DNA of 63,931 nt, the filler included, from Folioceros fuciformis (Eukaryota), in assembly GCA_049999805.1 (NCBI GenBank). It is 20 parts of 20 records of this genome, joined end to end, with 100 filler letters (N's around TTAATTAATTAA, not from the genome) between each part and the next. Parts side by side here need not be neighbours in the genome. Positions count along the whole stretch, not along the records: positions 56,791 to 58,474 come from JBNGIO010005047.1; 19 more parts are not named here. One strand, written 5' to 3'. Both the position numbers and the translations under genes were made by a program. The notes under the pieces were generated by a model. The model was not told where the DNA came from and did not search any database. It saw nothing but the letters and a program-made list of their open reading frames with translations. Of the stretch, positions 6,102 to 63,931 are shown in pieces. Every line of letters begins with the position of its first letter. Positions within the stretch are counted from its first letter, which is position 1.

Positions 6102-7010
6102 TCAGCTCCTCGCCTCCTCAAGCTGGAACTGCAGCTCAATGCACTTGTAGGCAGTGACCAATACAGCCCCTGGTGGCAAGGGCATGGTTTGCATCAAAGT
6201 TCCTCCTAGCCACAAGGCAATCGCGACAACAGCGAACGCAGTACCATGAGTTTTCTCACATAGCAGAGTTGCCAACGCCGCAGAAACAGCAACCAGCAGC
6301 CCCATCTCTCCGCCTATCAGCAAGCCCACACCGGAGGCTATCCGGTATCCAACTGCCACCTGCTTGCGGAGCGCCATCCCCGCCACAAGCAAAATGGAAG
6401 CCGCCTGTGCCCCGAAAGCATACCAAGCCACAACGACTGCCCATACCCCCGCCACCAGCACATGGCCTGAGTCAAAATTTTGCTTTCCGTCGCTGCTCCC
6501 GGAACTCCGGCGCCCGCTCCAAGTCTCCTGATGATGAAACTCTCCAGCCTCCTCCTCCCTGCCCTGTCCTCCTGCATCCGCATCATGGCTCCAAGCCGGA
6601 GCCTGGTACACCACCCTCCTGTATTGGCCGCGGTAGCCCCTCCTCACCCGTCCCTTCCGCGCCCGTTGCCTCCTATTTCCTTCCACCAGCTGATCGTCAT
6701 ACTCGCTCCTCTTAGCCTCGTCGCTGAGAATCTCGTATGCCAGCTTGATATGCTTGAACTTGTCCCCAGCTCCCACTTCCTTGCTCACGTCGGGATGGCA
6801 CTGGAGCGCCCGCTGCCTGAACGCGGTTTTGATGTCCTGGGGTGAAGCGGACGGCAACAGTCCCAGCACCCGGTAGTGATCCCCAGGCCTCCCGGAGAGA
6901 TCACAGCCTTCCTGCACTTCCCCTTGTGCTCTCGCCGGCCATCTCCCTCGTGCCATAATCCTATGGAATCCTGCACGGCCCAAGGCGGCCGCCATCAGCA
7001 GCCCCAGCAT
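6102..7010 (-). CDS. DnaJ (J-domain) protein with C-terminal hydrophobic/transmembrane helices, intronless
   Basis: 302-aa ORF with DHYRVLGL...IKTAFRQRALQCHPD...FKHIKLAYEILSD (HPD motif). The C-terminal third is hydrophobic and the N-terminus is Arg/Ala-rich and transit-like. Confidence 0.92.
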   Translation of the reverse strand: MLGLLMAAALGRAGFHRIMARGRWPARAQGEVQEGCDLSGRPGDHYRVLGLLPSASPQDIKTAFRQRALQCHPDVSKEVGAGDKFKHIKLAYEILSDEAKRSEYDDQLVEGNRRQRARKGRVRRGYRGQYRRVVYQAPAWSHDADAGGQGREEEAGEFHHQETWSGRRSSGSSDGKQNFDSGHVLVAGVWAVVVAWYAFGAQAASILLVAGMALRKQVAVGYRIASGVGLLIGGEMGLLVAVSAALATLLCEKTHGTAFAVVAIALWLGGTLMQTMPLPPGAVLVTAYKCIELQFQLEEARS

Positions 7011-14927: not shown

Positions 14928-16782
14928 AAATACGTCTTTGAAGGAGCTCTGCTTTTGGTATTGCGACGGACTCGACGATGAGCTGTTCAGAGAATTGATG
15001 CAGGCCCTCCAAGTCAACACCACTTTACGGAAGATCGACATAAGCCGTACAAGATGGGGTGGTGAGGGAAAGCAGGCCATCATCAACGCGAAGTTGGCAC
15101 GCAATGTTTGTGACAGGGCCTACTGGCCTTTGCTTTTGGAGGGGCAAGTGCCTGTGAAGCCCAGGGTAGGCCGCCTTTTCCTGTGCGGTGCACCTTACGC
15201 AGGGAAGACCACTCTCCGAAACACCATGATCACCGCATGGCGCGCACCGCAACCACACACATCAGATTCTGCACCGCAACCACCCACATCAGATTCCACA
15301 GGAGCCGCATCAGCCATCCAACTCCCATGGTGGGAACAATTGAACTTGCTATTGTCTCTAGCTTTGAGACGTCCCCGGTTGGATCATGTTCCACGCACAG
15401 GAGCGGCATCACCCAGCCAGGTGGATACTGTCCCCAGAACGGAAGGCATAGAAATCGAGGTGCTGCGCAACGACCACGAGATGGAAGTTACCATTTGGGA
15501 TCTGGCTGGACAAGCTCACTACCGAGTTCTGCAAGACTACTTATTCCCCAGCTTCAACCAGACGTGTGTCTTCTTGTACACATTCAACCCGTTTGATGCC
15601 GGCAAGCTTAGTGGACCCCTCCCGTCTACTGAAATGCTGTTAGACAAGTTCACAAACAGCTTCAAGTTCTGGCTTAGATTCATCCACTCTAATTCTCGCA
15701 ACGTGGGTTCTTGTTTGCCTCGGGTATTTGTGGTTGTCACTCATAAGGATCAGATGCAGGCTCTGGAGGTTGAAACACTAGTCGAACTGCTGCAACCAGT
15801 CGTGGACGAGTTGGCCCAGGATTTTGAGGAGGTACTTCATGTTACGACAACCCATCTATTCTTCATGGATGCTCGATCTACGCACACCGTGCACCCCGTG
15901 CTGGAGGAACTATTCCAATCGTTTCGACAGCTATTTGGACTTCCTCTGTTTTGGGTTCCGGAGCCATGCAACCGACTCAGTGCTGTTTTGACACAGTGGG
16001 TATCTCGAAATCCAGCTGAGCCTATTATCACCAAGGAGCGATGCAAAGAGTTGTTTCAACAAGATGATGAGCAACGCCTTCAAGCAATTCTTGCCTATCT
16101 CCACGATGCAGGCAGAGTCATCTGCTTCCAAGATGTAGATGCTGTGGTGGTGAATCCACAATGGATGAGTCATTCGTTTCTGGGCCGCCTCATCCAGCGC
16201 CTAGCCAGACAGCCTTGCGTGGGAAGATTCAATGATGGATTTGTTGCTACAACTTTGCTGCATGGAACCTTGAACGACATCCTGGACCACACGCAAGTGC
16301 AGGGCATTCGTGCTGAATACCTGGTATTATTGATGAAGAGACTAAACTTGTGCTACGAAGATCATGCCAATCGAAGCCCAGGATTCTTCGTTCCCTTCAC
16401 CTTGGATGACGCTGAAGGTAAAGCTCTTCAAGGGAAACGACCGTTGGATTGGAATGGTGGTGCGGCGTCCAAGTACAGTTACGTAGGGAGACGGCTACAA
16501 TGCCGAGATGGTAGAAAAACGTTTCTCGGTCCAGGCTGCTTTCTAAGATTCCAGGTACGTTGCCTTCTGAGCTGTCTCTTTTGTTAGTCATTTAACCTCT
16601 CTTGTGTTTCATGACACGGCCAATGCTTGTGCATTGCAGGTCAAGTTACGACAGGTCTTGTTCGATGGGCTCTTCGGTATGCAGTCTCATCAGTATAGCA
16701 TTGCGCGTAACTTGATCAGATTTAACTACGATGGTATGGACGTGTTTTTGGAGAGCAGTGGGGATATTCGGGACGAGACCGG
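14928..16782 (+). CDS. TORNADO1-like Roco protein (LRR-Roc GTPase-COR), internal fragment
   Basis: RI-like LRR (LMQALQVNTTLRKIDIS), P-loop CGAPYAGKTTL, RTEGIEI, G3 IWDLAGQ, G4 VVTHKD and COR LAYLHDAGRVI...VVVNPQWM. GT-AG intron at 16555-16639; the frame is open at both contig ends. Confidence 0.9.
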
Positions 16783-17449: not shown

Positions 17450-20400
17450 GTGGAGTTATCTGAGATCTCCGTAAAACAAAAGGAGAGGTTTGCCCGAGAT
17501 CGCATCTAACCCAAATAAGGCTGATTGTGACGTGATCTTGAGGTTAGCACCAGGAAAAATCAAGCAAAGCCATCTGCCTACCTCCCTCTAGATCTCTTGG
17601 GCAAAGTTGCAATGATAGAACATGTGTTGGCTCTTGTTCGGGGCCCTAGCGGTGCACAGCCAACACACATCCTCCCCCGTTGCAGCTGAAAGCCCATCCC
17701 AACGATCTGCATTAGGCAGACATGCTTGAAAGAAACACCAAACCGTAAACCTGACCTTGGTGGGGATTCATGCAGATTTCCATAGCAGCTTGATGGCTTC
17801 CCTTTGTCGTCGTCCAGCTAATTGCAATTGGGGAGCCATCGGTTGTCTTTGTTTGATTTTCTACGCTCGCAGCAACCGAAGGAACAAGTCCGCCATTGGG
17901 AAGTTGAAGAAAGATCGAGGGGGAGCCTTCTTACATCCTAGACGCCTAGGCCACCTGTAGAGATCTGGTCTGAAGGTCAGGGCCCAATTCTCTCCTAGTC
18001 GGAACCAACACTAGACCTTTGCTTTATCGGAGGTATGTGGCCCAATTGGACGTTCGCCAGGGAGGCACCATCGCCTTGCTCGAGCAGACTTAACGAGAAC
18101 AATGATAGCCCGCAATTCTCCTCCTTGGGCTTCCCCGTCGTCCCTACCTTGGTGTTCCAAAAATCCATCAGGCGACATGACCTTGAAAGACTTCAATGAC
18201 TAATTGCCCTCCGAACCTGCAAGCTAGACCGCCCTATCTAGCTCTAATGCCTCCACCTGATCATCCTCCTCCTCCGAGTCGACTCCCCTACTATCCATGG
18301 AGAAAGCATACCACCCTTCACCTCCTATGGTCGGTTGTTGCCTTAAGAGCTGTTGCACCTTATCTTCAAGCCCCTTGTGCAACCACACGAAAATGAGTCT
18401 GGCGTGTTGGGCCCCTAAGCAAAATTCCCCTTTAACCTCCTTTATCTCCTTCCAACGAGCCTCTGATCTATTCCATAGATGACCAAGTTGGATAACACCC
18501 CTCAGACAAGCCAACCCGAAAATTTGTGACCGGTATACCCTTGGCCTGAACTCCTGCACCCACAACCTCGAGAACCCCTGCAAAGGAATACCAAGAACAT
18601 CATCCGCATAAGAAAATTCACCCAAAATAAGATATTGTCTAACCTCCAAGTAATTGCTCCAGATGGATTTGAAGAGTGGGGAGCATTCTGCAGTATTGAG
18701 AATCGGTTTGTCAGCCAGAATGTTGTCAATAGACCTCCTACCTCTGGGGACAGCTTGGGTGCACTCTAGATGCTGTGTTAGAAGGCTCTTTCTAGGGATA
18801 GTACGTCGGATCAGCAACCCTGACAACCCACTGAGCATGCAACACTTTCATCTTGGCAACTGGGTCCACTACCCCAAGACCCCCCAAATCACGCGCCTGT
18901 ATAATATGCTGCCAAGCCACTTTAGAGCACCCAGCCTTCTTATCCCCCAAACGCTTCCATAGGAAAGAGGTTAGCACCTATTGTAAGTGTTTCACCTCTA
19001 ACTTGGAAGGGGCCCATAAAAACAGATCATACCATAAAGAGGCAGTAAGAAAATGATTAATCACCACCAGCCTTCCTGCCAAATTGAGCTCCAGCAACTA
19101 AAGACTAGCCGCCTTGCGAATGAACCTAAGGGAAACGTACTTCCCAATCTCCCCACTCTCATCCCCCTCTTGGAACGGAAGCCCCAAATACTTGTCGATA
19201 GAGCCCTACATCACTCGCTTGATGTGATTGATACATTGAGGAGGCCCTCCATTCAAGTGAAGACACATCATGCGCGTCTTACTCCAATTCACCTTGCAGC
19301 CAGATAGTTCACCAAAAACCTGGACCTGTTGGAGCAATGCTTTCAATGATGCCTCCTCCGCCAAAGAAAAAAGAAGAGTATCATCTGCGAATGCAAAGAC
19401 CCTTAGCTGCGTTCCGTCAGGGTTCCGAATACCCACCACTGCCGGGTCTTGCTTGACTGCTCTGAGAAAGAAGTCAGTGACGATGATAAATAAGAACGGA
19501 GCAAGGGGGCAACCTTGACGTACCGACCGAGAGATGCCAAAGCATTCCGTAAAAGACCCATTAACAGCCACTTTGGCTCCTAGGTCTTCAGTCAAAATGG
19601 CTATCCATCTGCAGAAATTATTCCCAAACCCGAAGCTACGCAGGCATCGCCACAGGAAATGCCATTCAACAGAATCATAAGCCTTATAAAAGTCAAGGGA
19701 AATGAAAACGGCGGCTTTCTTCTGTACCTGAGTGTTGTACTTCGCTTCCCTCAACAATAGTAAATTGTCGAGGGTGCACCTATTCTGAATGAACCCTCGC
19801 TGCTCCTTCTCAATCCAATCATCAAGGAAGGGTGTAATTCGGTTAGCCAGTACCTTAGCAGTCACCTTGTACGTGGTAGTGAGCAAGGTAATCGGGCGCC
19901 AATTGGAGATTGATACGCTGGCATCTTGCTTAGGGAGTAGGGAGATAACCCCCATGTTGAACCATCTCCCCATACTACCTTCTTCCCAAAACATACTGAC
20001 CGCTTCCATGAATAACGGCTGCATAAAATTCCACCCCCAAAGCAAGAACTCGGGAGGGATACCATCATGTCCCGGGGATTTGTCCCTCGGCATCCCCTTC
20101 AGGGCCTGGAGCACCTCGTCAGCAGTTATCGGCTTATCCAAAGCCCTGCGCTGATCATCCGACACTTTAGCTGAAAGTGCACCATAAGAAGAAGACCAAA
20201 GCCTTTCCCACCTTGCCACCTTCCCAACGTTGGAAAATATGCCAACAAAGAAGAGGGTAATAAGCATTTTTAAACCTTCGAGCGATTCTTGCACCGCGCC
20301 ACATGCGTTAAGGAGGGCAGGAATCCGCGTTCGATGTCGGTTGGAGGCCACCTTGTTGGAGAAAAATTTAGAGGGGCAGTCCCCCTCCCTCACCCACTTG
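17450..20400 (-). mobile_element. L1-type non-LTR retrotransposon (LINE) ORF2: reverse transcriptase and degenerate 3' part
   Basis: KSPGHDG, NWRPITLL, SLDFYKAYDSV, RQGCPLAP.LF, FADD, GC.VN.SK, KVAW....GGLG. Frameshifts and stops below about 19200; the 3' boundary is approximate. Confidence 0.9.
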
Positions 20401-28856: not shown

Positions 28857-31896
<3,040 letters not shown>

Positions 31897-43327: not shown

Positions 43328-44333
43328 AATTGGGTGTAGGATGGTTTAGGTCATAGAGAGAGATGGTTAGGTAGTTGACTCAGGTTAACCCTAAAAGATA
43401 GAGGTGGAGGGCTGGGTAGTATAAGAGGGGTGTGGGGGAAAGTATTGCACCCGGGGATGCTGTGAGGTCCACATAAACCCTCTTTGTCGTTACAGCTCTG
43501 GGATTCGATTCCAAGGGAATGATTTGTGTCCAACTATACAGGTTTCCTCTCAAAATCAAATATTACCTTAAGCGTACCTATCTCCTCAGGACCCCCCAAC
43601 TACCCAAGTCACACCCGGGCGCTCCCACTCTTCTTGTCTTCCTGATGACCCCAGCTGTGGCCACTTCTTCAACCGCCTCAACCACTCCATTGCTACACCA
43701 GTGGGTCCCACTTTCTCTCTCTCTCTCTCTAAGCCTCCTCCTCTCTCCACTAACCTGGGTTACCCTCTAATACCTACTTACCAATCCTTTGCCTCCTAAA
43801 ACCGCCAGCAACTTACTCCTAGTCGCGCTCACCTGCGAACTCAAGACCTCCGCCCGTACCCGCCAGTTCTCCAGTACCTCGACTGAAACACAAGAGCGTT
43901 CGTCGTGCACATATTGGCACTCAGGAAGTTTCGAAGGGGCCTTGGACAGTACAGTCCTCAATCTATCCACGCAACCTCAGCCCAAACCCAGGCCGGTTTA
44001 CACACAATCGTCTTTCAGCTACACACGCGCCAGGTTTTGTCGCCACTTAATCACTCCAACTCGACAGCTCCACTTTCATGGTTCCTCTTTTCCTCACACT
44101 CTGAGCACTCGTCCTCGGTTCGCAGCGCCCCATCCGCGACGCCTCCAAAGGTCCCTTTTCGATTATAGTCTCCAGTCCACTCCTCNNNNNNNNNNNNNNN
44201 NNNNNNNNNNNNNNNNNNNNNNNNNNNNNTTAATTAATTAANNNNNNNNNNNNNNNNNNNNNNNNNNNNNNNNNNNNNNNNNNNNAATGAATAGTGCCCT
44301 AAGCTAGCCCTATTCTAGCTCTATTTTATCACA

Positions 44334-47300
44334 ATCAGCATCTGTGAAGCCCTTTAACATAAGTTTCTGCTGTCCACTACTCCTGTATGCAAGCCCATAG
44401 GATTGTGTTCCCTTAAGGTAGCAGATAACACGCTTAGCTGCTGTCCAATGCACACATCCTGGATTTTCTAGAAATTGAGATAGAGTGCTAACAAAATACT
44501 GTATATCCGGTCTTGTCCAATTGGCAATAAAAATTAAACTGCCAATTGCATGCCTGTAGGGGACCTGGGCCATCTCCCTCATCTCGTCTGCACCTTGTGG
44601 GCATTGTTGGCTAGTCAGCTTAGTCCCTAAAGCATAAGGGGTGGTAGAAGGTCTAGCATCTTCAAGCTTGAACTTTTGCAGAAGCTCTTGAACGTACTGA
44701 TACTGGTGAATAATGATGAGTTTTTCAGGTCTGACCCGTAACAGCTGTATACCCAGGCAGAACTTTAACTCGCCTATATCCTTCATCTCAAACCTACTAC
44801 TCAACATTTCCTTTACTTGTGCTAGAAGAGGCTGACTGTTTGTAGCAAGTATGACATCATCAACATACAATGCCATGATAACATATTCATCTCTTTTTGT
44901 GAGCTTGTATACAGAACCGTCTGCAGAGCTTTTTATAAAAGAGTTGCTGATGAGGTACTCATGTATTGTAAGATACCAAACTCTGCCACTTTGCTTCAGG
45001 CCATAGATGGTCTTTAGCAGCTTTAGGACCTGTTTAGGATGTTTCGGGTCTACATACCCTTCAAGTTGCACCATGTACAAATCCTCATCAAGTGCTCCAT
45101 ATAAGAAAGCTGTACATACGTCCATTTGATGTAGGTCCAAGTCAAATTCTGCTGCTAGAGCTAATATCATCCTGATGGATTGTGCTCTCACAACTAGTGA
45201 GAACGTTTCCTGATAATCTAACCCTTCAATCTGCGTGAATCCTCTTGCGACCAACCTTGCCTTATACCTTGCAATTTTGCCCTTAGCATTCAACTTTAGA
45301 TTAAATACCCACTTGCAGGAGATAGGTTTTCTGCCAGGTGGGAGATCAACCAACTTCCATGTTTTGTTCTTAACTAAAGAATTGTATTCATCATCAACTG
45401 CAAACTTCCACTTATCACGTTCAGGTCCTGAATATGCCTCTATTAAGGATTTAGGCTCCAGGTGTATGGTGCTTGAAGCTGAATTGCAGATGTCTGCATA
45501 TGCTGTCCTAAAATCGATTGATTCATAACGTGGCTCTTTCCACTGTTCTGGAGGAGGACGATGTCTGGTGGAACGTCGTAAAGGAGGATCATGTTCTTGG
45601 TCTTGAATAGCAAGTGGCTGTTCATGTTCCTCATGTATATTGTCCATGAGCATTTGTGCATCATTGTCTCCCTCTGCTTGGTCAGCATCTGGATTAGGTA
45701 CATGAATGTCCTCATAATAATCTGGAGCAAGAGCTGGTTGTGGATCAGGATTGGCAGCATGTGCTGGCTGTTGCTGTACAGGTGGGGGATGTAGCAGGAC
45801 AGGTTGAAAAGGAGGAGGTGCTGGACCAGCAGGTTGGACTGTTTGAACATCTCCCTCATCGTGTGTATCATCATCAGGGAAATCAACAGTGTCATCTGTT
45901 GATTGTGGTATGTCCACTCCCTCTGCTGCTGTTTGTCCAGTAGCGAGGGGTCTATCAATTTCAAGAAAAGTGACAGATCGGGCTAACACAACTTGCTGAT
46001 GTGCAGGGTCATAGAGTTTATATGCTTTGGATTGTTCACTGTAGCCGACGAAAACAAGTGCTTGGGCTCTCGGATCCAGCTTCTTTCGCTTCTCCTTTGG
46101 GATGAGAGCAAAAGCACGTGAACCAAACACACGCAAGTGCAGCAAACTAGGTTTCCGTTTCCAAAAAGCCTCATAGGGGGTCTGAGATGGAAGGGAACTT
46201 GTAAAAAGCCTGTTCAAGATATATGTAGTTGCGACAATGGCTTCAGCCCAATAGGCTTGAGGCAATTTAGCCCACAATAACATACTCCGTGTCATGGCCA
46301 GCAATGTCTGATTTTTCCTTTCAGCCACGCCATTTTGCTGTGGAGTGTTATGGATAGTATGCTGACGTTGAATCCCCCTCTCATGCAAGAAGTTGTCAAA
46401 AGTGTCATTGACAAATTCTGTTCCATTGTCAGTCCGAAGAGACTTAACAGACTGACCTGTCTGTTTTTCAGCAGTCCACAACCAATCACGGAAGAGTTCA
46501 AAGGTATCACTCTTCAAGTGCATCGGGAAAGTCCATGTGTAGCGAGAATAATCGTCAGTTATGCAGAGGTAATAAATGGAGCCACCCAGAGAGAGGACAT
46601 GTATTTTACCGGAAATGTCTGCATGCACTAACTCGAGGACAACAGATGCCCTGTAGGTGGCTAAAATTGGGAAGGGATGAGCTTTCTGTTTGGCAACAAT
46701 GCAAGCTTCACAAGAAGGTAAGTCTTTGAAAACCTGAGGCAATGGTTCAAGGTGACATGCTTGTAACGACATATCTAGTAGCTTTCTCTTATTAACATGA
46801 CCAAGCCGTGCATGCCAAAGAACAGCAAGACGTTGGGACTTTGCAGAGATAAGACCAGCTTGATGACGAAGTGTGCAAATATCGAGTCTATACAGATCAT
46901 GATCTAAGGTACCTTTAAATGCCAGCATGGATGGTTCTGACCTCTTGTAGAAGAGACAAGTGTCCTCACTGGCTTTCATGTCATACACTCGAAGTTGCAT
47001 CAGTTTGCTAAGAGAAACCAAATTCTTTGCCATGGACGGCACATAGAGTACGTCATCCAGGGTAAGAATTGATCCATCGTTGAGTGTGAACTTGCATGTG
47101 CCACTGCCATTGATTTGGAGACTGGACTGATTGCGTTCATCTCCCAAAAGCACTCTTTCAGCTAATCTGTTTGTCTGAAGCAAGTAAAATTGCTCTTTTA
47201 TTTCTGCAGATGTGGGAGGTTGCGCCAGAATCCAAGTACCAACCATCTTCATCACATATGGAACGGGTAAGGCAGACTGTAAGTATCTTCACCACTGGTT

Positions 47301-56790: not shown

Positions 56791-56856
56791 GTGAGGGATG
56801 GGTACCGTGTGCATCGATTCGCAAATGGTTGTTGCAGTTGTAAGGGACGACCATGA
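56791..56856 (+). CDS. C-terminal end of a PPR-DYW deaminase domain, GRP variant (DYW:KP-like); rest of gene beyond contig edge
   Basis: Frame 1 of the contig reads VRDGYRVHRFANGCCSCKGRP*. This matches the DYW terminal signature VRDxxRFHHFxxGxCSCxDYW, with GRP as the final tripeptide. Confidence 0.85.
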   Translation: MRDGYRVHRFANGCCSCKGRP

Positions 56857-57721
56857 GAAAAATGAAGAAGTGAGTGTAGCCAGTGCCAGGCGGATTCCTA
56901 GTGGTGTGCGGATTCGTCTTGGTGGCAAGTACCATGTTCCTCTACGGGCATTTGAGGGCATTTCGCTCTGTGGGACTAGGTACTTCACAACTTTGTAGCA
57001 AGCCTAGCATGTTTTCCTTGCACCCCTGCACACTCTTCATGATGAGCACGTTGTACACGTGCTTTGCAGGGTCTCCACAACTCTTCTCCTTACCAATACT
57101 GCCGTATGTGTATGATGCTGTACAGTGCAGGTGAAAGCACATTGGTAGCCAGTATGCCGAGGAGTATCAAGGCACAAGAGCTTGGCAGTTCACAGGAAAC
57201 AGGTGAAACGAGCAACCCCAATCACAATCCAGGCAGTGCGAGGCACATATCTAGACTTTTACTTAAGGGCAATTCTTCGTCTAGTCACATCCAGGACCGC
57301 GTTGCCGTTTCGGCCTTCAAGATACCAACTGACCCAACTGCCTGATCAGAAACAGAGACTGTGATACCATGGCTCGGTTAAAATATCTTGGGCTATGTAG
57401 GCTGTTATGCACTTAGCGTTGACAAGCCTTAAATGAAATTCTCGTTTTTCTTATGGCGGCTGACAAGCTATTAACTGTTTTGTATATCTAAACTGAAACA
57501 TAAAGTTACTACCTAATATCCGTTACATGGTCAAGTGGTCTGAAGCACCAGTCCGACAGCTCGGCCACAGGTATTACAGGACGGGTCACCCCTTCAGGCA
57601 GGACTGCTCACGGTTCACCCCTTCAGCTGCTGTGGTCATACATTCGTACAGTGTACCCGGCCGGGGATCTGCCTAGACGAGACTTTTGTTAGAGTCATCT
57701 TCCGACAGCGGTCCCTGAACG

Positions 57722-58474
57722 ATGGCCACAGTATGGCAACCGGACCTGTTGCGGACCCATCAAATTGGAATTGGTGTGTGTGCAAGGACTCTACCAGGAA
57801 CCCCCGCTCACCTCAGCTTCGGGAGTGAACCCTTTGCAAACAAAGCCTCCAGGTGCAGCAGTGTCAGGAGCCCAGCACTTCCACCTCCGAGAACGAGAAG
57901 GTGTGTGGGCAGGGACGGGTTTTCCGACGATGCTGGTAGTTGCCAGGAGCAGCAGGAGCACTTGTGGCGACAACTTTTTCTGGATCCTACCATGTGGTGG
58001 GACAACAGACGAGACAAGAAGAGCTCCCGTTCCCCTCACTTCCGGCGTAAGGGGTCCGGCGAGGTGCTGCGGTTGGACAACAAATTTAAGCCAGCATGGG
58101 TTGATGAGCGGCTCGTCTCCTTGGATATGCAGATGGATCACGCTTCCGCTCCTTCCACCTCCAGCTCTCCAGATAATCCTGAACCTGGAAAGCGTAGAGG
58201 TGGTGAAATGGGCTCCAGGGGCAGCAGTGCAGGAAACCCAGCACTTCCACATGCAATGGGCCATGGAGTCTCTTCTTTCGAGTCCAGCTCTCTGTATAAG
58301 CATGGGTCTGGCAGGCGTGCAGAATTGGAAGCGGGCGTCGTGACTGCTGCAACCGTGAGCATGTTGTGTCATCAGGGGAAGCTTTCTGAGCCCTGGAATC
58401 TCTGGTGCAGTCAGACTCTGGCGCTTGTCAGTCTCTGTTTTACACAGTGTTAAAACTCTGTACAGCTAAGAAGG
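57722..58474 (+). CDS. 5' part of a probable organelle-targeted PPR protein carrying an OSB-type PDF motif; apparent 1-bp frameshift near 58390
   Basis: Ser/Arg-rich transit-like N-terminus and the motif LWRQLFLDPTMWWDNRRDKKSSRSPHFRRKGSGEVLRLD...PAWV. Then SMLCHQGKLSE, and after restoring one G, ALESLVQSDSGACQSLFYTVLKLCTAKK, typical of the start of a PLS-PPR tract. Confidence 0.7.
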
Positions 58475-58574: not shown

Positions 58575-61500
58575 AGGCGACCTCAGACTTCTGCAAACTC
58601 AAATGCGAGCCCTTATAAATCGGCATAGGAGATTCATCACCTTGCTGGAGCGATTGTTGTCGGGACGCAATTCCTCTTGAACAGGCCATCTTTCCCTATA
58701 CTTATGCGATTTGTAATCAGCGACACCAACTCTGGCTCGTTTGCACAAAGACAGACTCAGCAAACGCGAGATTTCAATCGGCACAACTGAGTTCATGACT
58801 CTGGATCAGCTTACGTGCGCGGGCGAACGTAAGCTGATTTCGAGGACGCGCGCGTGACGCTGAACCGGTGCTGGCCGAAGAGCGATAGGGGCGCGACTGT
58901 TTGCAACTGCCGCGGCCAGGCGATGCAAGATCTTGAGGACGCGCCTCTGCCCTATGATCAGCAATCCAGGTCAACATCGTCAGATTAATCCGGATGTGTG
59001 TGGTCGCAAAGGGTGCATGCTCAAATGGCGAAACAGACGCGACTGGTGAAGCAACTTTTTAGAGGCAAGGGATTTCTCTGTAACTGCTACAGCTGGTTCG
59101 CGGCTTTGCCAGCTTGCTACCTTGCACACCACCTTGCAACCGTTCGCCCCCGTCTTGCGCTTGATTTTTTTTCTTCCCGAAACTCAGCATGCTCCGTGTT
59201 GGTCTACACAATCGATCAGCGCGAATCAGTTTTTCAGCATCCACCTTTGAGAATCGAGCCTGTTAATTGCTTGCGTGCGCGATGAACACCACGCAGAGTT
59301 CTGCAGGGCTCCTCTTTGGCGTGGGGACTGGAAACGTCTCCCCCGCCGTGAGTTCTGCAGCTCCAGGCAGCACTGCTGTGCCATCGCCGCCATCTTCCTC
59401 TACGTCAGGTCCAGCGCAGGGTGCAGGTGGAGCTTCCGCCTCTACCTCTGGTGCTGCCACTACCTCTGGCGTTTTTCCAAACCCCTACACAAGCCTTTAT
59501 GCAGGACTTGGTGGCCTTGGTAACTGGTATTCTGGTCTTGGCGGTGCCAGTGGTGGATCAAGTGGCAGTGGCGGACCACCCAATCCTCCACCACCTCCGC
59601 CCGTACCACCACCTAATCCGCCTGCACAAGGAACCTCAGGCTCGCTTGCTGCTCAAGCTCACATTTATCAGCCGGCGTACACCATTGAATTCAAAGAACG
59701 TGACCGATTCAATGGTACAAAATACCAGGTGTGGAGTGTTCGGATGCAAGCTGCCCTTGATGCCAGGCATGTCTAGGGAGTTGTGAGTGGCCAGATTCCA
59801 CAACCCTCACCTAACGCCACACAAGATGACAAGGACCGATGGATGAATGCAAATAACGTCGCTCGTGCCCTGCTCATCAGTGGGTTAGATGAGGTACTTG
59901 TTCCCGATGTAGCTTACCTTTTTAAGGCCGAGGACATCTGGAATCAGCAGTCACAGACTTATGATGTGAGGAATATCATTACACTGTGCACAGTACGTGG
60001 GGAACTCTTCTCATTACGGATGAAGGAGGGAGAGAAAGTAGCCACCTTCGTGGCTAAGTTCAGACACTTGAGATCACAGCTGATCTCACTTGGTTCTCAG
60101 CTGGGCGAGGTTGACTCTGTGGCTCAACTTCCCATAGTTATCAGTCCTTCGTTTCAAGCTATGGGGCAGCTCTTCGTGTTGCCCAACAAGCTGCTGCTGC
60201 TGGACAAGTACCCAACATAACCTTCACAGATATTGTTGGTGCCCTTCTACAGGAAGAGCAAAGTCGCAGCATGCATACACCAGGAAAGACAAAAGCTGAT
60301 AAGGTCCTGTATTCTAACAAGAACAAACCACAAGGGAAAATTAAGAATATACCTGGTGTTGGTGTATCCAAGCCAGGGCAAGGAAAACGATCTGGATCCT
60401 GCAACTGGTGTGGGTTTCCAGGGCATTGGGAGCGCGAATGCAAGAAGAGGAAAAATGGGAGAACCGAGGAAGGCCGAGAAACCCTAGAAAACGGTTGAGG
60501 CCCACTCAGTTTCCAAGGACAGGTCTTCACCGACCTCTTCTTCTCGCAAGCAGCCAGTTGTGATGACCGTCTGCCATTCCAACACAATCTGTGAGCCAGA
60601 TTCTTGGTATTTGGATTCGGGTGCCACAACCCATATCTGCCATAATCGTCACTTGCTTAGTAACTTTTCTCCAACACATACTAATGAGAAGGTGTTGTTG
60701 GGAGATGAACTTACCCAAACAGGTTTGAGAATTCTTGGTACAGGATCATGTGCTTTCCGACTTAAGGATGGCTCTGCACTGCAGTTGGACAACGTTCTCT
60801 ACGTTCCTACCATGGCAAAGCATCTTCTTTCGGTTAGCCAGTTGATGAAACTTGGGCAGTTTGACCTGCTATTTACAGCTGATGGTTGCATGCTCACCCA
60901 TAAAGGTGCTGATGATCCAGTGGCTTGTGGGCTTCTGGTTGATGACTTATATCGCCTAGATATATGTTGCCAATCTGCTCACAGCATTTTTGCAGCTGCT
61001 TACACACAGTCAGAATTAGCACAATTGTGGCATGCCCGTTTGGGCCATGCAAATAAGAACAAACTTATTAAGATGTCCAACACTGACTGTTATCGTGAGC
61101 CGCTGCCAACTTGTTTTAAGGAACTTGCCTTGTGTGACTCCTGCGTCCTTTCTAAGCAAAAGGAACTCCCCTTTCCAGCTACGGTTGCTCACCGTACTTC
61201 CAACGTCCAGGATCTGGTGCACACAGATATCTCAGGCAAAATTCAAGTGCCTTCTTTAGGCGGTTCCCACTATTACCTGACACTTACCGATGACTACAGT
61301 CGCTATTCATGGACTTTCCCTCTTCAGCGTAAATCTGACACATTTCCTGTATTCCAAGAATGGCTTCTCATGGTGCAACATCAGACCGGCCGTCTCCTTC
61401 GTTGTTTGCGATCGGACAATGGTACTGAATTTGTTAATCAAGAATTTAACCAGTATCTCTTGAAGCGTGGAATTATTCGTCAGTTGATTGTCCCCTACAC

Positions 61501-62769
61501 ACAGCAGCAAAACGGCGTGGCTGAAAGGAGGAATCAGACATTACTTGGAATGACACGCAGCATGCTTCAGTGGTCAGGTTTGGATAAATCCTACTGGGCT
61601 GAAGCTGTTGTCACGGCTACATACATTCTAAATCGACTTCTTACCAGTTCTGTGGAGACTCGAACTCCTTTTGAGGTCATTTGGCACCGCCGCCGCAGCC
61701 TCCTCCACTTGCGTGTCTTCGGCTCACCGGCTTATGCTTATATCCCTAAGAAACAACGCAAGAAACTTGACGACCGGGCAAAGCCTCTCATTTTTGTGGG
61801 TTATGGTGAGGGGACCAAGGCCTACAAATTATATGATCCTCTGTCTCGTACTTGCACCTTTGCTCACAGTGTTACTTTCAAGGAGCTTACCCGCCCGGCC
61901 GTTCCTCATTTTGCTGACCCTTCGGCTATTTCTTCTCCTGCTGATGACTTTGACCTTGAAGTTTCGAAGTATCCTCAGGATGTTTACATGGTTCCCCTTT
62001 CAGGGGGTGCTCCTCCTGCTGCTGCTGCTGGTGGTTCAGGGGGTGGTTCTCAGTCCCCTGCACCGTCATCTTCCTCCACACCACTTGACTTGCCTGTTTT
62101 AGGTCATTCTCCTGTCCAGCCAGATGATCCCACTGAATTAAATGACACACACGGGCTGCCAAGTGATGCAAGTGCTGAAGACTATGCTGAAGACAATGAA
62201 CCCCCTGCAGCACAGATTGATGACTTAGGCGAATTTCCTTTAGTTGAAGACTCACCTGATCTTCTTCATTCCTCTGCGTCTTCTGATGATGATGTTGATG
62301 AAGCCCCAGGCACCTCAGTTCCTGATGTTCCTGAGTCCCCTGTCTTACATGCTCCCGTCCCAGTGACTGAAGAACGCAGATACCCAAGCAGAATCCGAAA
62401 CCCTAGGGATCAGTGGCACGAGAAACCATATGAGTCAGTGGATTTTAGAATCCCTAAATCGTCCAGGCTGACACAAAACCCATCTCTAGTGTTCTCTTCC
62501 TCTACAGATCATCCTGCCGAACTCCGCAGTTATCAGGAAGCTATCACTGGTAAGGATAAGGATCATTGGATCCCGTCCATACAAGATGAGTATAATTCTC
62601 TTATACAAAATGAAACATGGGAGCTATGCCCCCTACCTGCTGGAAGGAAGGCCGTGAGTTGTAAATGGATTTTTAAACACAAGCTAAATGCTCAAGGCCA
62701 GATAGCTAGGTATAAATCCAGATTGGTCGCTCGAGGTTTTTCGCAGGTAGCTGGTGTAGATTATGTTGA
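58575..62769 (+). mobile_element. Ty1/copia element: upstream ORF end, leader, gag (ATG 59282), protease, integrase, start of RT
   Basis: YTIEFKERDRFNG, CNWCGFPGHWEREC, WYLDSGATTH, LRSDNGTEF, QQNGVAERRN and YKSRLVARG. Sister of the 39796 copy. Confidence 0.96.
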
Positions 62770-62869: not shown

Positions 62870-63931
62870 AAGTCCGACCCTCCATCCACAGCAGCAAGGA
62901 ACCCCATCGCTCCTTCATGGGAACGAAACCCAATGTCTCAACGACAGTGGGATAAGTGTGGCCACTAAAGGTGGGACCCGTCGGCAATCAGTGCCCTGGG
63001 TTTTGCCTCCACATTTTTGGCGCCGCTGCCGGGGAGCGGCTTGGGAGTTTCTTTTGCTGACCGGATGGAGAGTCTAAGTTGTCCTGTAGATGTCTGGTGG
63101 AAGAGGTGATCGCAGAACTGGTAGAGGAAGAGCAGTTGTAACGCCTTCACCAAGGGATCTGCGTGCAACAAGGAGGAATTTGCTGAGAGGAGAGAGTAAC
63201 TTGACCCCTAAGGCTAGCACCCTTGTGCAGGAGGAGCTGCCTTGGTCAAGTGGAGAGCACGAATCTGAAGGGTTGATTGCTGGAGAGCGTGACATCCAGG
63301 AGGTTGGTATTACATCTGGTTGCAGGAAGGAGTCTTACAGCCAACAAGTGGGTCATGTTGAGAGGGAGTCCGTGTTACAGTCGAGTGTTGTGCAGTCAAC
63401 TCTAGGTGATACTTCAGTTGTGGTATCATTGCTGGATAGCTTGCAGTCACTTGTTGGTGGTCAGTCAGTCCCCTTGCCGGCCATTGTTCCATTGTCAGCC
63501 CCCGTAGTGGTTTCGATAGGGGCTGTACTTCCTACGTCAAGTATCAGCCAAGTGGGTGGAGGAGTTGCTGCAAGGATGGCTGCTCCTATTCACAGTCGTC
63601 AGCAATACGTGAAGTTTGGAGACAAGAGAAGAGGGGAGGATGCTGAATCCTTCCTAAGGACGTTCGAGCATGTGTCTCGTGCCAACATGGAGGACACTAC
63701 AGCTGATCGTTTGAGGATCTTTCCAGGTTTGCTGAGAGGACAAGCTCAGCAGTGGTACAGCCGGACGTATGGAGTGACACCACCAGTGGATTGGGACAGC
63801 CTGAAGGACGATTTCTTGACCAGGTTCCGAGGTCTCAGCCATGGCCATCACACCTACGCGAGGTTGAGGACTTTGAAGCGAGGAAGGAAGGAGGATCTCT
63901 ATGACTACATTGAGAGGTTCTACAGCTATGT
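62870..63931 (+). mobile_element. Ty3/gypsy LTR retrotransposon 5' end: LTR end, tRNA-Asp-type PBS, gag
   Basis: The LTR ends ...CCTCCACA at 63013, with PBS TGGCGCCGCTGCCGGGGA at 63018-63035. An ORF from ATG 63090 is open to the window end and has the retrotransposon gag pattern DAESFLRTFE...LLRGQAQQWY...WDSLKDDFLTRF...EDLYDYIERF. Confidence 0.9.

Follow-up and report, generated by a model that had tools for sequence, protein, structure and literature searches.

An OSB-type PDF motif in the probable 5' end of a PLS-class PPR gene of Folioceros fuciformis

The stretch of DNA analysed here, referred to as the window, runs from position 1 to 63931 (63,931 nucleotides) and comprises 20 contigs of 1.1-8.6 kb each, chained by N44-TTAATTAATTAA-N44 spacers (38 N-runs of 44 N around 19 copies of a 12-letter all-frame stop). 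Because the window consists of joined short contigs, features are not read across the joints. The eighteenth piece carries the open reading frame (ORF) that is the subject of this study, and its features are collected in Table 1. Since this contig stops at 58474, anything downstream of that position is absent from the window; the next piece is an unrelated Copia-type element.

The 243-codon ORF matches no Pfam family at E<=10. Its first 70 residues include 9 basic and 5 acidic residues, 12 S+T and 8 P, a composition consistent with the transit-like N-terminus proposed in an earlier note on this DNA, for which composition is the sole basis. Downstream, the ORF encodes the motif string that the note had quoted from 57962-58114, the landmarks being LWRQLF (residues 81-86), WWDNR (92-96), PHF (105-107), LRL (116-118) and KPAWVD (123-128). 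Two copies of a 38-nt direct repeat are in frame at a spacing of 366 nt, equal to 122 codons, and this arrangement looks like the trace of a duplicated PDF unit.

Table 1. Features of contig piece 18 and of the ORF that it carries (positions of the window)
Feature	Position	Strand	Remarks
Contig piece 18, 1684 bp, GC 0.518	56791..58474		Spacer-bounded; right end cuts gene
ORF, 243 codons + stop	57722..58453	+	First ATG directly after in-frame stop 57716-57718
N-terminus, residues 1-70	57722..57931	+	Putatively transit-peptide-like, from composition
PDF motif, residues 76-135	57947..58126	+	Probably PPR-linked subtype; profile and database matches, model
His106 instead of Asp of 'PDF'	58037..58039	+	Motif alignment
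Arg117 instead of Trp of 'LWL'	58070..58072	+	Motif alignment
Ser/Gly/Ala/Pro-rich linker, residues 136-214	58127..58363	+	Exceeds P0120 linker in length
38-nt direct repeat, copy 1	57847..57884	+
38-nt direct repeat, copy 2	58213..58250	+	84% identical to copy 1
PPR lead-in part 1, LCHQGKLSE	58364..58390	+	ORF frame
1-nt deficit relative to paralogues	58390..58391	+	GAGCC here, GAGGCC in paralogues
PPR lead-in part 2	58393..58473	+	Next frame, to contig end
Stop codon met by ORF frame past the shift	58451..58453	+

The surroundings of the ORF within the window are mixed. Retroelement fragments occupy 44313-47288 (-), 60488-62769 (+), 63090-63929 (+) and 19209-20399 (-), and include two Copia-type pol ORFs with gag_pre-integrs, rve and RVT_2, one Retrotrans_gag ORF and one RVT_1 (LINE-like) reverse transcriptase; several further Copia-like ORFs lie elsewhere in the window. 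Ordinary host gene fragments at 30347-31075 (-), 6105-7010 (-) and 14929-16584 (+) encode a multi-RRM protein (RRM_1, E 2.6e-52), a DnaJ-domain protein and a COR-A protein (Roc/COR-type GTPase). On piece 18 itself, the first ~60-80 nt (56791-56867) are highly repeated in all four sequencing runs compared. In one organism, here called organism B, single contigs fuse this contig start to 57683-57719, skipping ~840-870 nt, and given these joins the region upstream of the gene may contain an insertion or be lineage-specific. One contig of run X3, which is guessed to be RNA, skips 146 nt with GT..AG ends at 56978-57123; this could be an intron, on the + strand, that belongs to an upstream exon or to a 5' UTR.

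OSB proteins provide the reference for the conserved part of the ORF. The reviews PMC6963530 and PMC4166229 describe the PDF motif as a module of ~50 residues, present in one to three copies behind the OB-like domain of OSBs, and attribute the single-stranded DNA (ssDNA) binding of these proteins to it, the motif alone being enough in OSB1. An OSB-only profile was built from 86 PDF motifs of 43 proteins, each with a Pfam SSB match. Against this profile, which has 61 positions, the ORF scored 67.5 bits in a match to positions 2-60 (E 3.5e-23 for a single sequence), as compared to a best score of 4.3 bits among 1000 ORF shuffles; the proteins of the profile had themselves been retrieved with the window's motif, which favours look-alikes. 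The homology to the OSB PDF motif claimed at the outset is thus upheld, and the check set there, whether the motif fits a PDF profile or not, comes out in favour of a fit. When 1.84 billion representative proteins were scanned with the ORF, 351 matched at E<=0.001, of which 59 reached E<=1e-10 and 4 reached E<=1e-30, and the best 150 of these representatives all align via ORF residues ~70-140, often repeatedly per protein. A word-indexed search of the ORF against longer proteins gave 3528 candidates with none at E<=0.001, which set beside the full scan is an index miss.

The motif in the window is an unusual copy. The eponymous P-D-F and L-W-L signatures read P-H-F and L-R-L, and 12 other near-invariant sites are retained. 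In an alignment of 345 motifs, 97% of the SSB-linked, 100% of the PPR-linked and 95% of the remaining motifs have Asp in P-D-F, and none of the 345 has His there. For the Trp of L-W-L the corresponding shares are 99%, 94% and 95%, and two of the 345 have Arg; the suspicion that both replacements are odd was therefore well placed. In a set of 16 PPR-linked motifs, the residues W, W, D, R, K, P, D, F, L, W, P, W and V are each 94-100% conserved.

The relatives of the ORF divide into several builds. Pfam was run on the best 150 of the 351 representatives, 33 at E<=1e-3 and 117 at E<=1e-4. An SSB match, the OSB build, was found in 43 of these 150 (36 of the 43 above Pfam's own cut-off), and PPR families behind one to three PDF motifs in 13, two of which also carry a DYW deaminase; one has a kinesin domain, and the rest match no credible family. 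PDF motifs without any Pfam domain were counted in 94 of the 150, some of them short. The best match, P0001 (1371 aa), has three PDF motifs that are 48-52% identical to the window motif, followed by PPR repeats and then by an E motif. P0094 (564 aa) has a canonical DYW end, and P0120 (753 aa, from the assembly of a sequencing run), which we take to be of the 'DYW:KP' type, has a KPAxA-like string and a GRP end. Other arrangements were seen in passing: P0005 (Kingdonia uniflora, 1160 aa) has 13 PDF motifs; P0044 (Coptis chinensis, 1526 aa) has a kinesin motor with PDF motifs N-terminal to it, possibly in a merged gene model; and P0009 (521 aa, named Sanguina aurantia, a chlorophyte snow alga) has multiple PDF motifs and no Pfam domain.

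A profile search with the window motif plus 11 fragment proteins as query, and with targets of 393-2000 residues, returned 332 matches at E<=0.001, among them proteins named OSB1, OSB2 and OSB3 by NCBI. PPR families were present in 90 of the 120 matches listed (of 332), 43 of the 90 with DYW_deaminase; the other 30 were OSB-like or unclassified. The sources of the fusions among the matches listed are Diphasiastrum complanatum, at least six Sphagnum species, Calypogeia fissa and Adiantum capillus-veneris, and the signature residues of the PDF module are retained across these moss, liverwort, lycophyte and fern fusions; the seed-plant proteins among the matches listed are all OSB-like, with no PDF-PPR fusion. 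Across 100 fusions, 67 have one PDF motif, 25 have two and 8 have three. Complete relatives contain PLS-type PPR arrays, many with E, E+ or DYW_deaminase ends. One fusion, P0158, was assembled from a transcriptome, a point against the fusions being artefacts of gene models. Public names of the fusions are 'hypothetical protein', 'pentatricopeptide repeat-containing protein' and 'DYW domain-containing protein'. Hornwort-type proteins are nearly absent from the protein collection searched, and a search of it with P0120 residues 60-205 found P0120 itself only, so that the immediate subfamily is unrepresented there.

These relatives, and not the window itself, establish the PDF-PPR build. The PDF+PPR build proposed in the earlier note thus stands for the family, with its intact members in both searches, and the window supplies the motif but no PPR repeat; likewise, the note's further idea of a possible editing factor draws on the many relatives with E or DYW ends, and neither array nor end domain lies in the window.

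What the window does contain, at the very end of the contig, is a piece, ~37 residues long, of the lead-in that usually precedes a PPR array, split across two frames. A lead-in profile was made from 98 PDF-PPR proteins, using the 110 residues behind the last PDF motif of each (consensus ...LCKEGQLEKALELL......Y..LLKAC...). Applied to 120 six-frame translations of all 20 contig pieces, it gave E 0.005 at the contig end, the sole match below E 1, the next best being at 3.4. Read through with X at the break, the lead-in scored 12.5 bits over profile positions 13-59, as compared to 7.0 for the best shuffle (n=1000), and it also aligned with P0120 residues 154-197 at E 1.5e-4. It lies on the same strand as the PDF motif and within ~90 codons after it. 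The 'PPR-like start' named in the earlier note is therefore a genuine lead-in, but a short one that is broken across two frames. There is no single uninterrupted frame from motif to array, the deficit at 58390/58391 being followed by the stop at 58451-58453. The 'apparent PPR tract' did not materialize: Pfam finds no PPR repeats in the ORF, the contig runs out at 58474, just where an array would be expected to start, and eight full-length PDF-PPR proteins compared with the whole window matched the PDF motif only at E<=1e-3, and no repeats.

The motif itself offers a second line of evidence as to which build the gene belongs to. PPR-linked motifs often have K before P.WV and D after, and the window has both. 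Held-out profiles of the two subtypes were derived from 87 new fusions (125 motifs) and 22 SSB proteins (54 motifs). The window scored 72.4 bits with the PPR-linked and 66.8 bits with the SSB-linked profile, which puts PPR-linked ahead by +5.6; an initial, smaller pair of profiles had given +14.5 in the same direction. Of the 16 held-out PPR-linked motifs, 13 had a positive PPR-minus-SSB score and 3 fell below zero; the score was also positive in 3 of 33 held-out SSB-linked motifs and in 1 of 68 further non-PPR motifs. These scores assign the window motif to the PPR-linked subtype with moderate, not decisive, confidence. The assignment of the window gene to the fusion class depends on a weak match to the lead-in (8.8-12.5 bits) together with the motif subtype.

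The deaminase types of the fusions were also compared. The earlier note had proposed a test for enrichment of PDF+PPR fusions among GRP/KP-type DYW proteins. A specific association of this kind is not supported, and we reject it: of 44 DYW-bearing fusions only one, P0120, belongs to the GRP/KP type, and ..YW or ..SW ends occur in 34 of the 43 DYW-bearing fusions in the profile search listing. Because the DYW-fusion sample is mostly from Sphagnum and Diphasiastrum, this count says little about hornworts.

We consider it probable, at roughly 0.8, that 57722-58474 is the 5' end of a nuclear PLS-class PPR gene in which presequence, PDF motif, linker and array follow in that order. The gene would begin with an organelle presequence, continue with one OSB-type PDF motif and a low-complexity linker, and pass into a PPR array, behind which, as in complete relatives, an E or DYW end would be expected. 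The contig would break at the first PPR-like helix pair, hence the array would lie outside the window.

Whether this copy is still functional is a separate matter, on which the frame break and the two replaced residues bear. The stretch is represented many times in related genomes. The sequencing runs found are all contig sets, with at most 0.34 of the stretch's sampled words present, and on piece 18 at >=90% identity three runs of organism A contribute 480-613 contig pieces and the one run of organism B contributes 7208. The summed depth of these pieces is highest over the WWDNR core. Organism B is without cover at 57247-57645, which indicates that the repeated unit starts near the gene start. 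Single organism-B contigs lead from 58195 or 58198 back to 57847, and from 57889 forward to 58270, and the joints in run X4 are described as 'goes back 349/352' and 'skips 380'; the joined contigs, one contig each and with short sides, give a thin indication that some copies have an additional PDF unit and others lack the unit altogether. At the break, contigs covering 58261-58389 all end at 58389 in the four runs, and no aligned contig of these contig sets spans the window's letters over 58389-58430. Paralogue contigs in runs X1, X3 and X4 read ...TCTGAGGCCGT.. and keep the frame (loose ends at 58388), and contigs of related genomes have GAGGCC where the window has GAGCC.

On balance, we lean toward regarding the window copy as a decaying member of a multi-copy family, in which one nucleotide has been lost and two near-invariant residues have been replaced. 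The earlier note had left the choice between a decaying and a re-purposed motif open; the frameshift, His106 (0/345) and Arg117 (2/345) together favour decay over re-purposing. A possible, and to us the less probable, reading is that the gene is intact and functional, the deficit at 58390/58391 having arisen in sequencing or assembly, and the changes His106 and Arg117 being tolerated or adaptive (re-purposed). Three oddities in one copy (the frameshift, H in 0/345 and R in 2/345) speak against this, as does the size of the multi-copy family, in which dead copies are expected. An error of 1 nt at 58390/58391 is nonetheless plausible because the draft assembly consists of short contigs; the assembly is highly fragmented (20 contigs, 1.1-8.6 kb), and independent contigs that confirm the deficit number zero. 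The 243 open codons argue against long-standing decay, the 12 other near-invariant motif sites are kept, and LRL also occurs in the second motif of P0023, an intact-looking PDF-PPR protein.

Much less probable is that the ORF as written is a real small organelle protein, in which a presequence and one PDF motif are followed by a tail and no PPR array, and which would bind single strands as a minimal counterpart of OSBs. Such a protein would account for an ORF that has both a start and a stop, and it would have company among the 94 of the best 150 representatives in which PDF motifs occur without a Pfam domain. Many of the short proteins are, however, plainly fragments of PPR fusions, as exemplified by P0127 with its PPR-type ..MYGKCG end, and the sequence past the shift matches the PPR lead-in, in the other frame, to the contig end, which is unexpected if the short frame were selected. 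The motif moreover bears two damaging-looking changes, and paralogues that read through are already hinted at in runs X1, X3 and X4.

That the locus is an ordinary OSB gene or an OSB pseudogene is highly improbable. The strong match to the OSB-only profile is what one would expect of such a gene, but no SSB/OB match accompanies it, and only 75 residues precede the motif where an OB-like domain needs more (for scale, the OB-like domain of P0013 spans residues 137-234). Behind the motif lies a PPR lead-in and not a C-terminus, and the subtype leans toward PPR-linked. An ordinary OSB is thus largely refuted, by the absence of an SSB domain and by the lead-in behind the motif. A chance resemblance in non-coding or transposon DNA, as might be suspected from the position of the contig among Copia-type fragments in the window and from the repetition of the stretch in related genomes, can be set aside, since the database scan and the shuffle test rule out a chance motif (E 3.5e-23 vs <=4.3 bits in 1000 shuffles), protein-level conservation reaches mosses and lycophytes, and the ORF is without a transposon family.

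With the locus read as the 5' end of a PDF-PPR gene, the nature of the module can be considered. An AlphaFold model of the 71-residue motif, made from a 28-sequence alignment, is compact (mean pLDDT 89.5, pTM 0.75) and consists of a helix, two to three short strands and a helix. In the full-length model of P0094, residues 1-85, which include the counterpart of the window ORF's N-terminus, are disordered, residues 85-145 show the same motif-like order of elements, and PPR helices begin at 156. As modelled, the PDF module is conserved and folds autonomously. Solved structures compared by sequence gave a best E of 0.91, Foldseek with the motif model gave no matches at E<=0.001 (best 4.6), and the best Z that VIA-align reached among 48,161 chains was 4.4, short of the meaningful level; these empty fold searches are not evidence of a new fold.

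The PDF module would work as it does in OSBs, as a sequence-unspecific single-strand nucleic-acid clamp placed before the PPR array. Such a clamp would add affinity for the target RNA, or would keep the factor close to nucleoid DNA or to nascent RNA. The earlier note had likewise supposed a nucleoid or ssDNA tether, which could couple editing to transcription. We offer this role tentatively and for the family as a whole, by analogy with what reviews say of OSB1; the main alternative is that the PDF module serves in protein contacts. A bolder proposal, which we regard as unlikely, is that PDF-PPR proteins constitute an old, widespread and undescribed class of organelle editing factors in bryophytes, lycophytes and ferns, in which the PDF motif would anchor the factor on single-stranded nucleoid DNA or nascent RNA and so couple editing to transcription or replication, the number of PDF motifs (0-3) would tune this anchoring, and the lineage of the window would hold hundreds of copies.

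The window copy itself is of little value, being truncated by the assembly and probably broken. The significance of the finding lies in the family, since at least 100 proteins, drawn from four lineages of land plants, have in front of the PPR array a conserved module known from proteins of organelle DNA maintenance. The usual picture of PPR editing factors comprises a presequence, RNA-reading repeats and a deaminase end, and the PDF module is an addition to it. This raises the question of whether PDF-PPR factors contact DNA or nascent RNA, or whether the 'ssDNA' motif binds RNA. In practical terms, censuses of OSB genes by PDF profile will also collect PPR genes, and the design of PPR tools may gain a small affinity module that, as modelled, would fold autonomously. 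In the full-text literature searched, neither the PDF motif nor OSB is linked to PPR proteins; subscription papers on PPR evolution were outside this scope, and an earlier mention there is possible. The available portion of a 2026 study of OSB evolution in 59 species (PMC13393729) contains no mention of PPR or pentatricopeptide.

Several known systems share parts of this arrangement. The closest in motif are the OSB proteins themselves (Arabidopsis OSB1-4), which have the same ~60-residue motif, W..F..P..WWDNR..K....PDFKHK...E.LW.....P.WV. In OSBs the motif or motifs come after an OB-like domain and form the C-terminal end of the protein, whereas in the window there is no OB-like domain and the motif is N-terminal, before the PPR lead-in; PPR-linked motifs also form a subtype that is recognisable from OSB motifs. 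In textbook editing factors, the presequence is directly joined to the PPR array. The window keeps the lead-in of PLS-class editing factors of the E/DYW kind, LC..G.L.EA. ... Y..VLK.C, but PDF-PPR fusions differ from these factors in carrying one to three PDF motifs between presequence and array. Among individual proteins, P0120 has the closest lead-in and a similar motif start, LWRQ.FLD; unlike the window gene, it is complete and in frame, has D and W at the two replaced sites and has a linker ~55 residues shorter.

PPR proteins with accessory domains include PPR-SMR and PRORP (NYN), and MORF/RIP, ORRM and OZ1 are helpers of editing that act in trans. None of these was shown with a PDF motif in our searches. 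They share with PDF-PPR proteins the logic of joining a PPR array to a second nucleic-acid-binding or catalytic module, which in the PDF-PPR proteins is the PDF motif, placed N-terminally and in cis.
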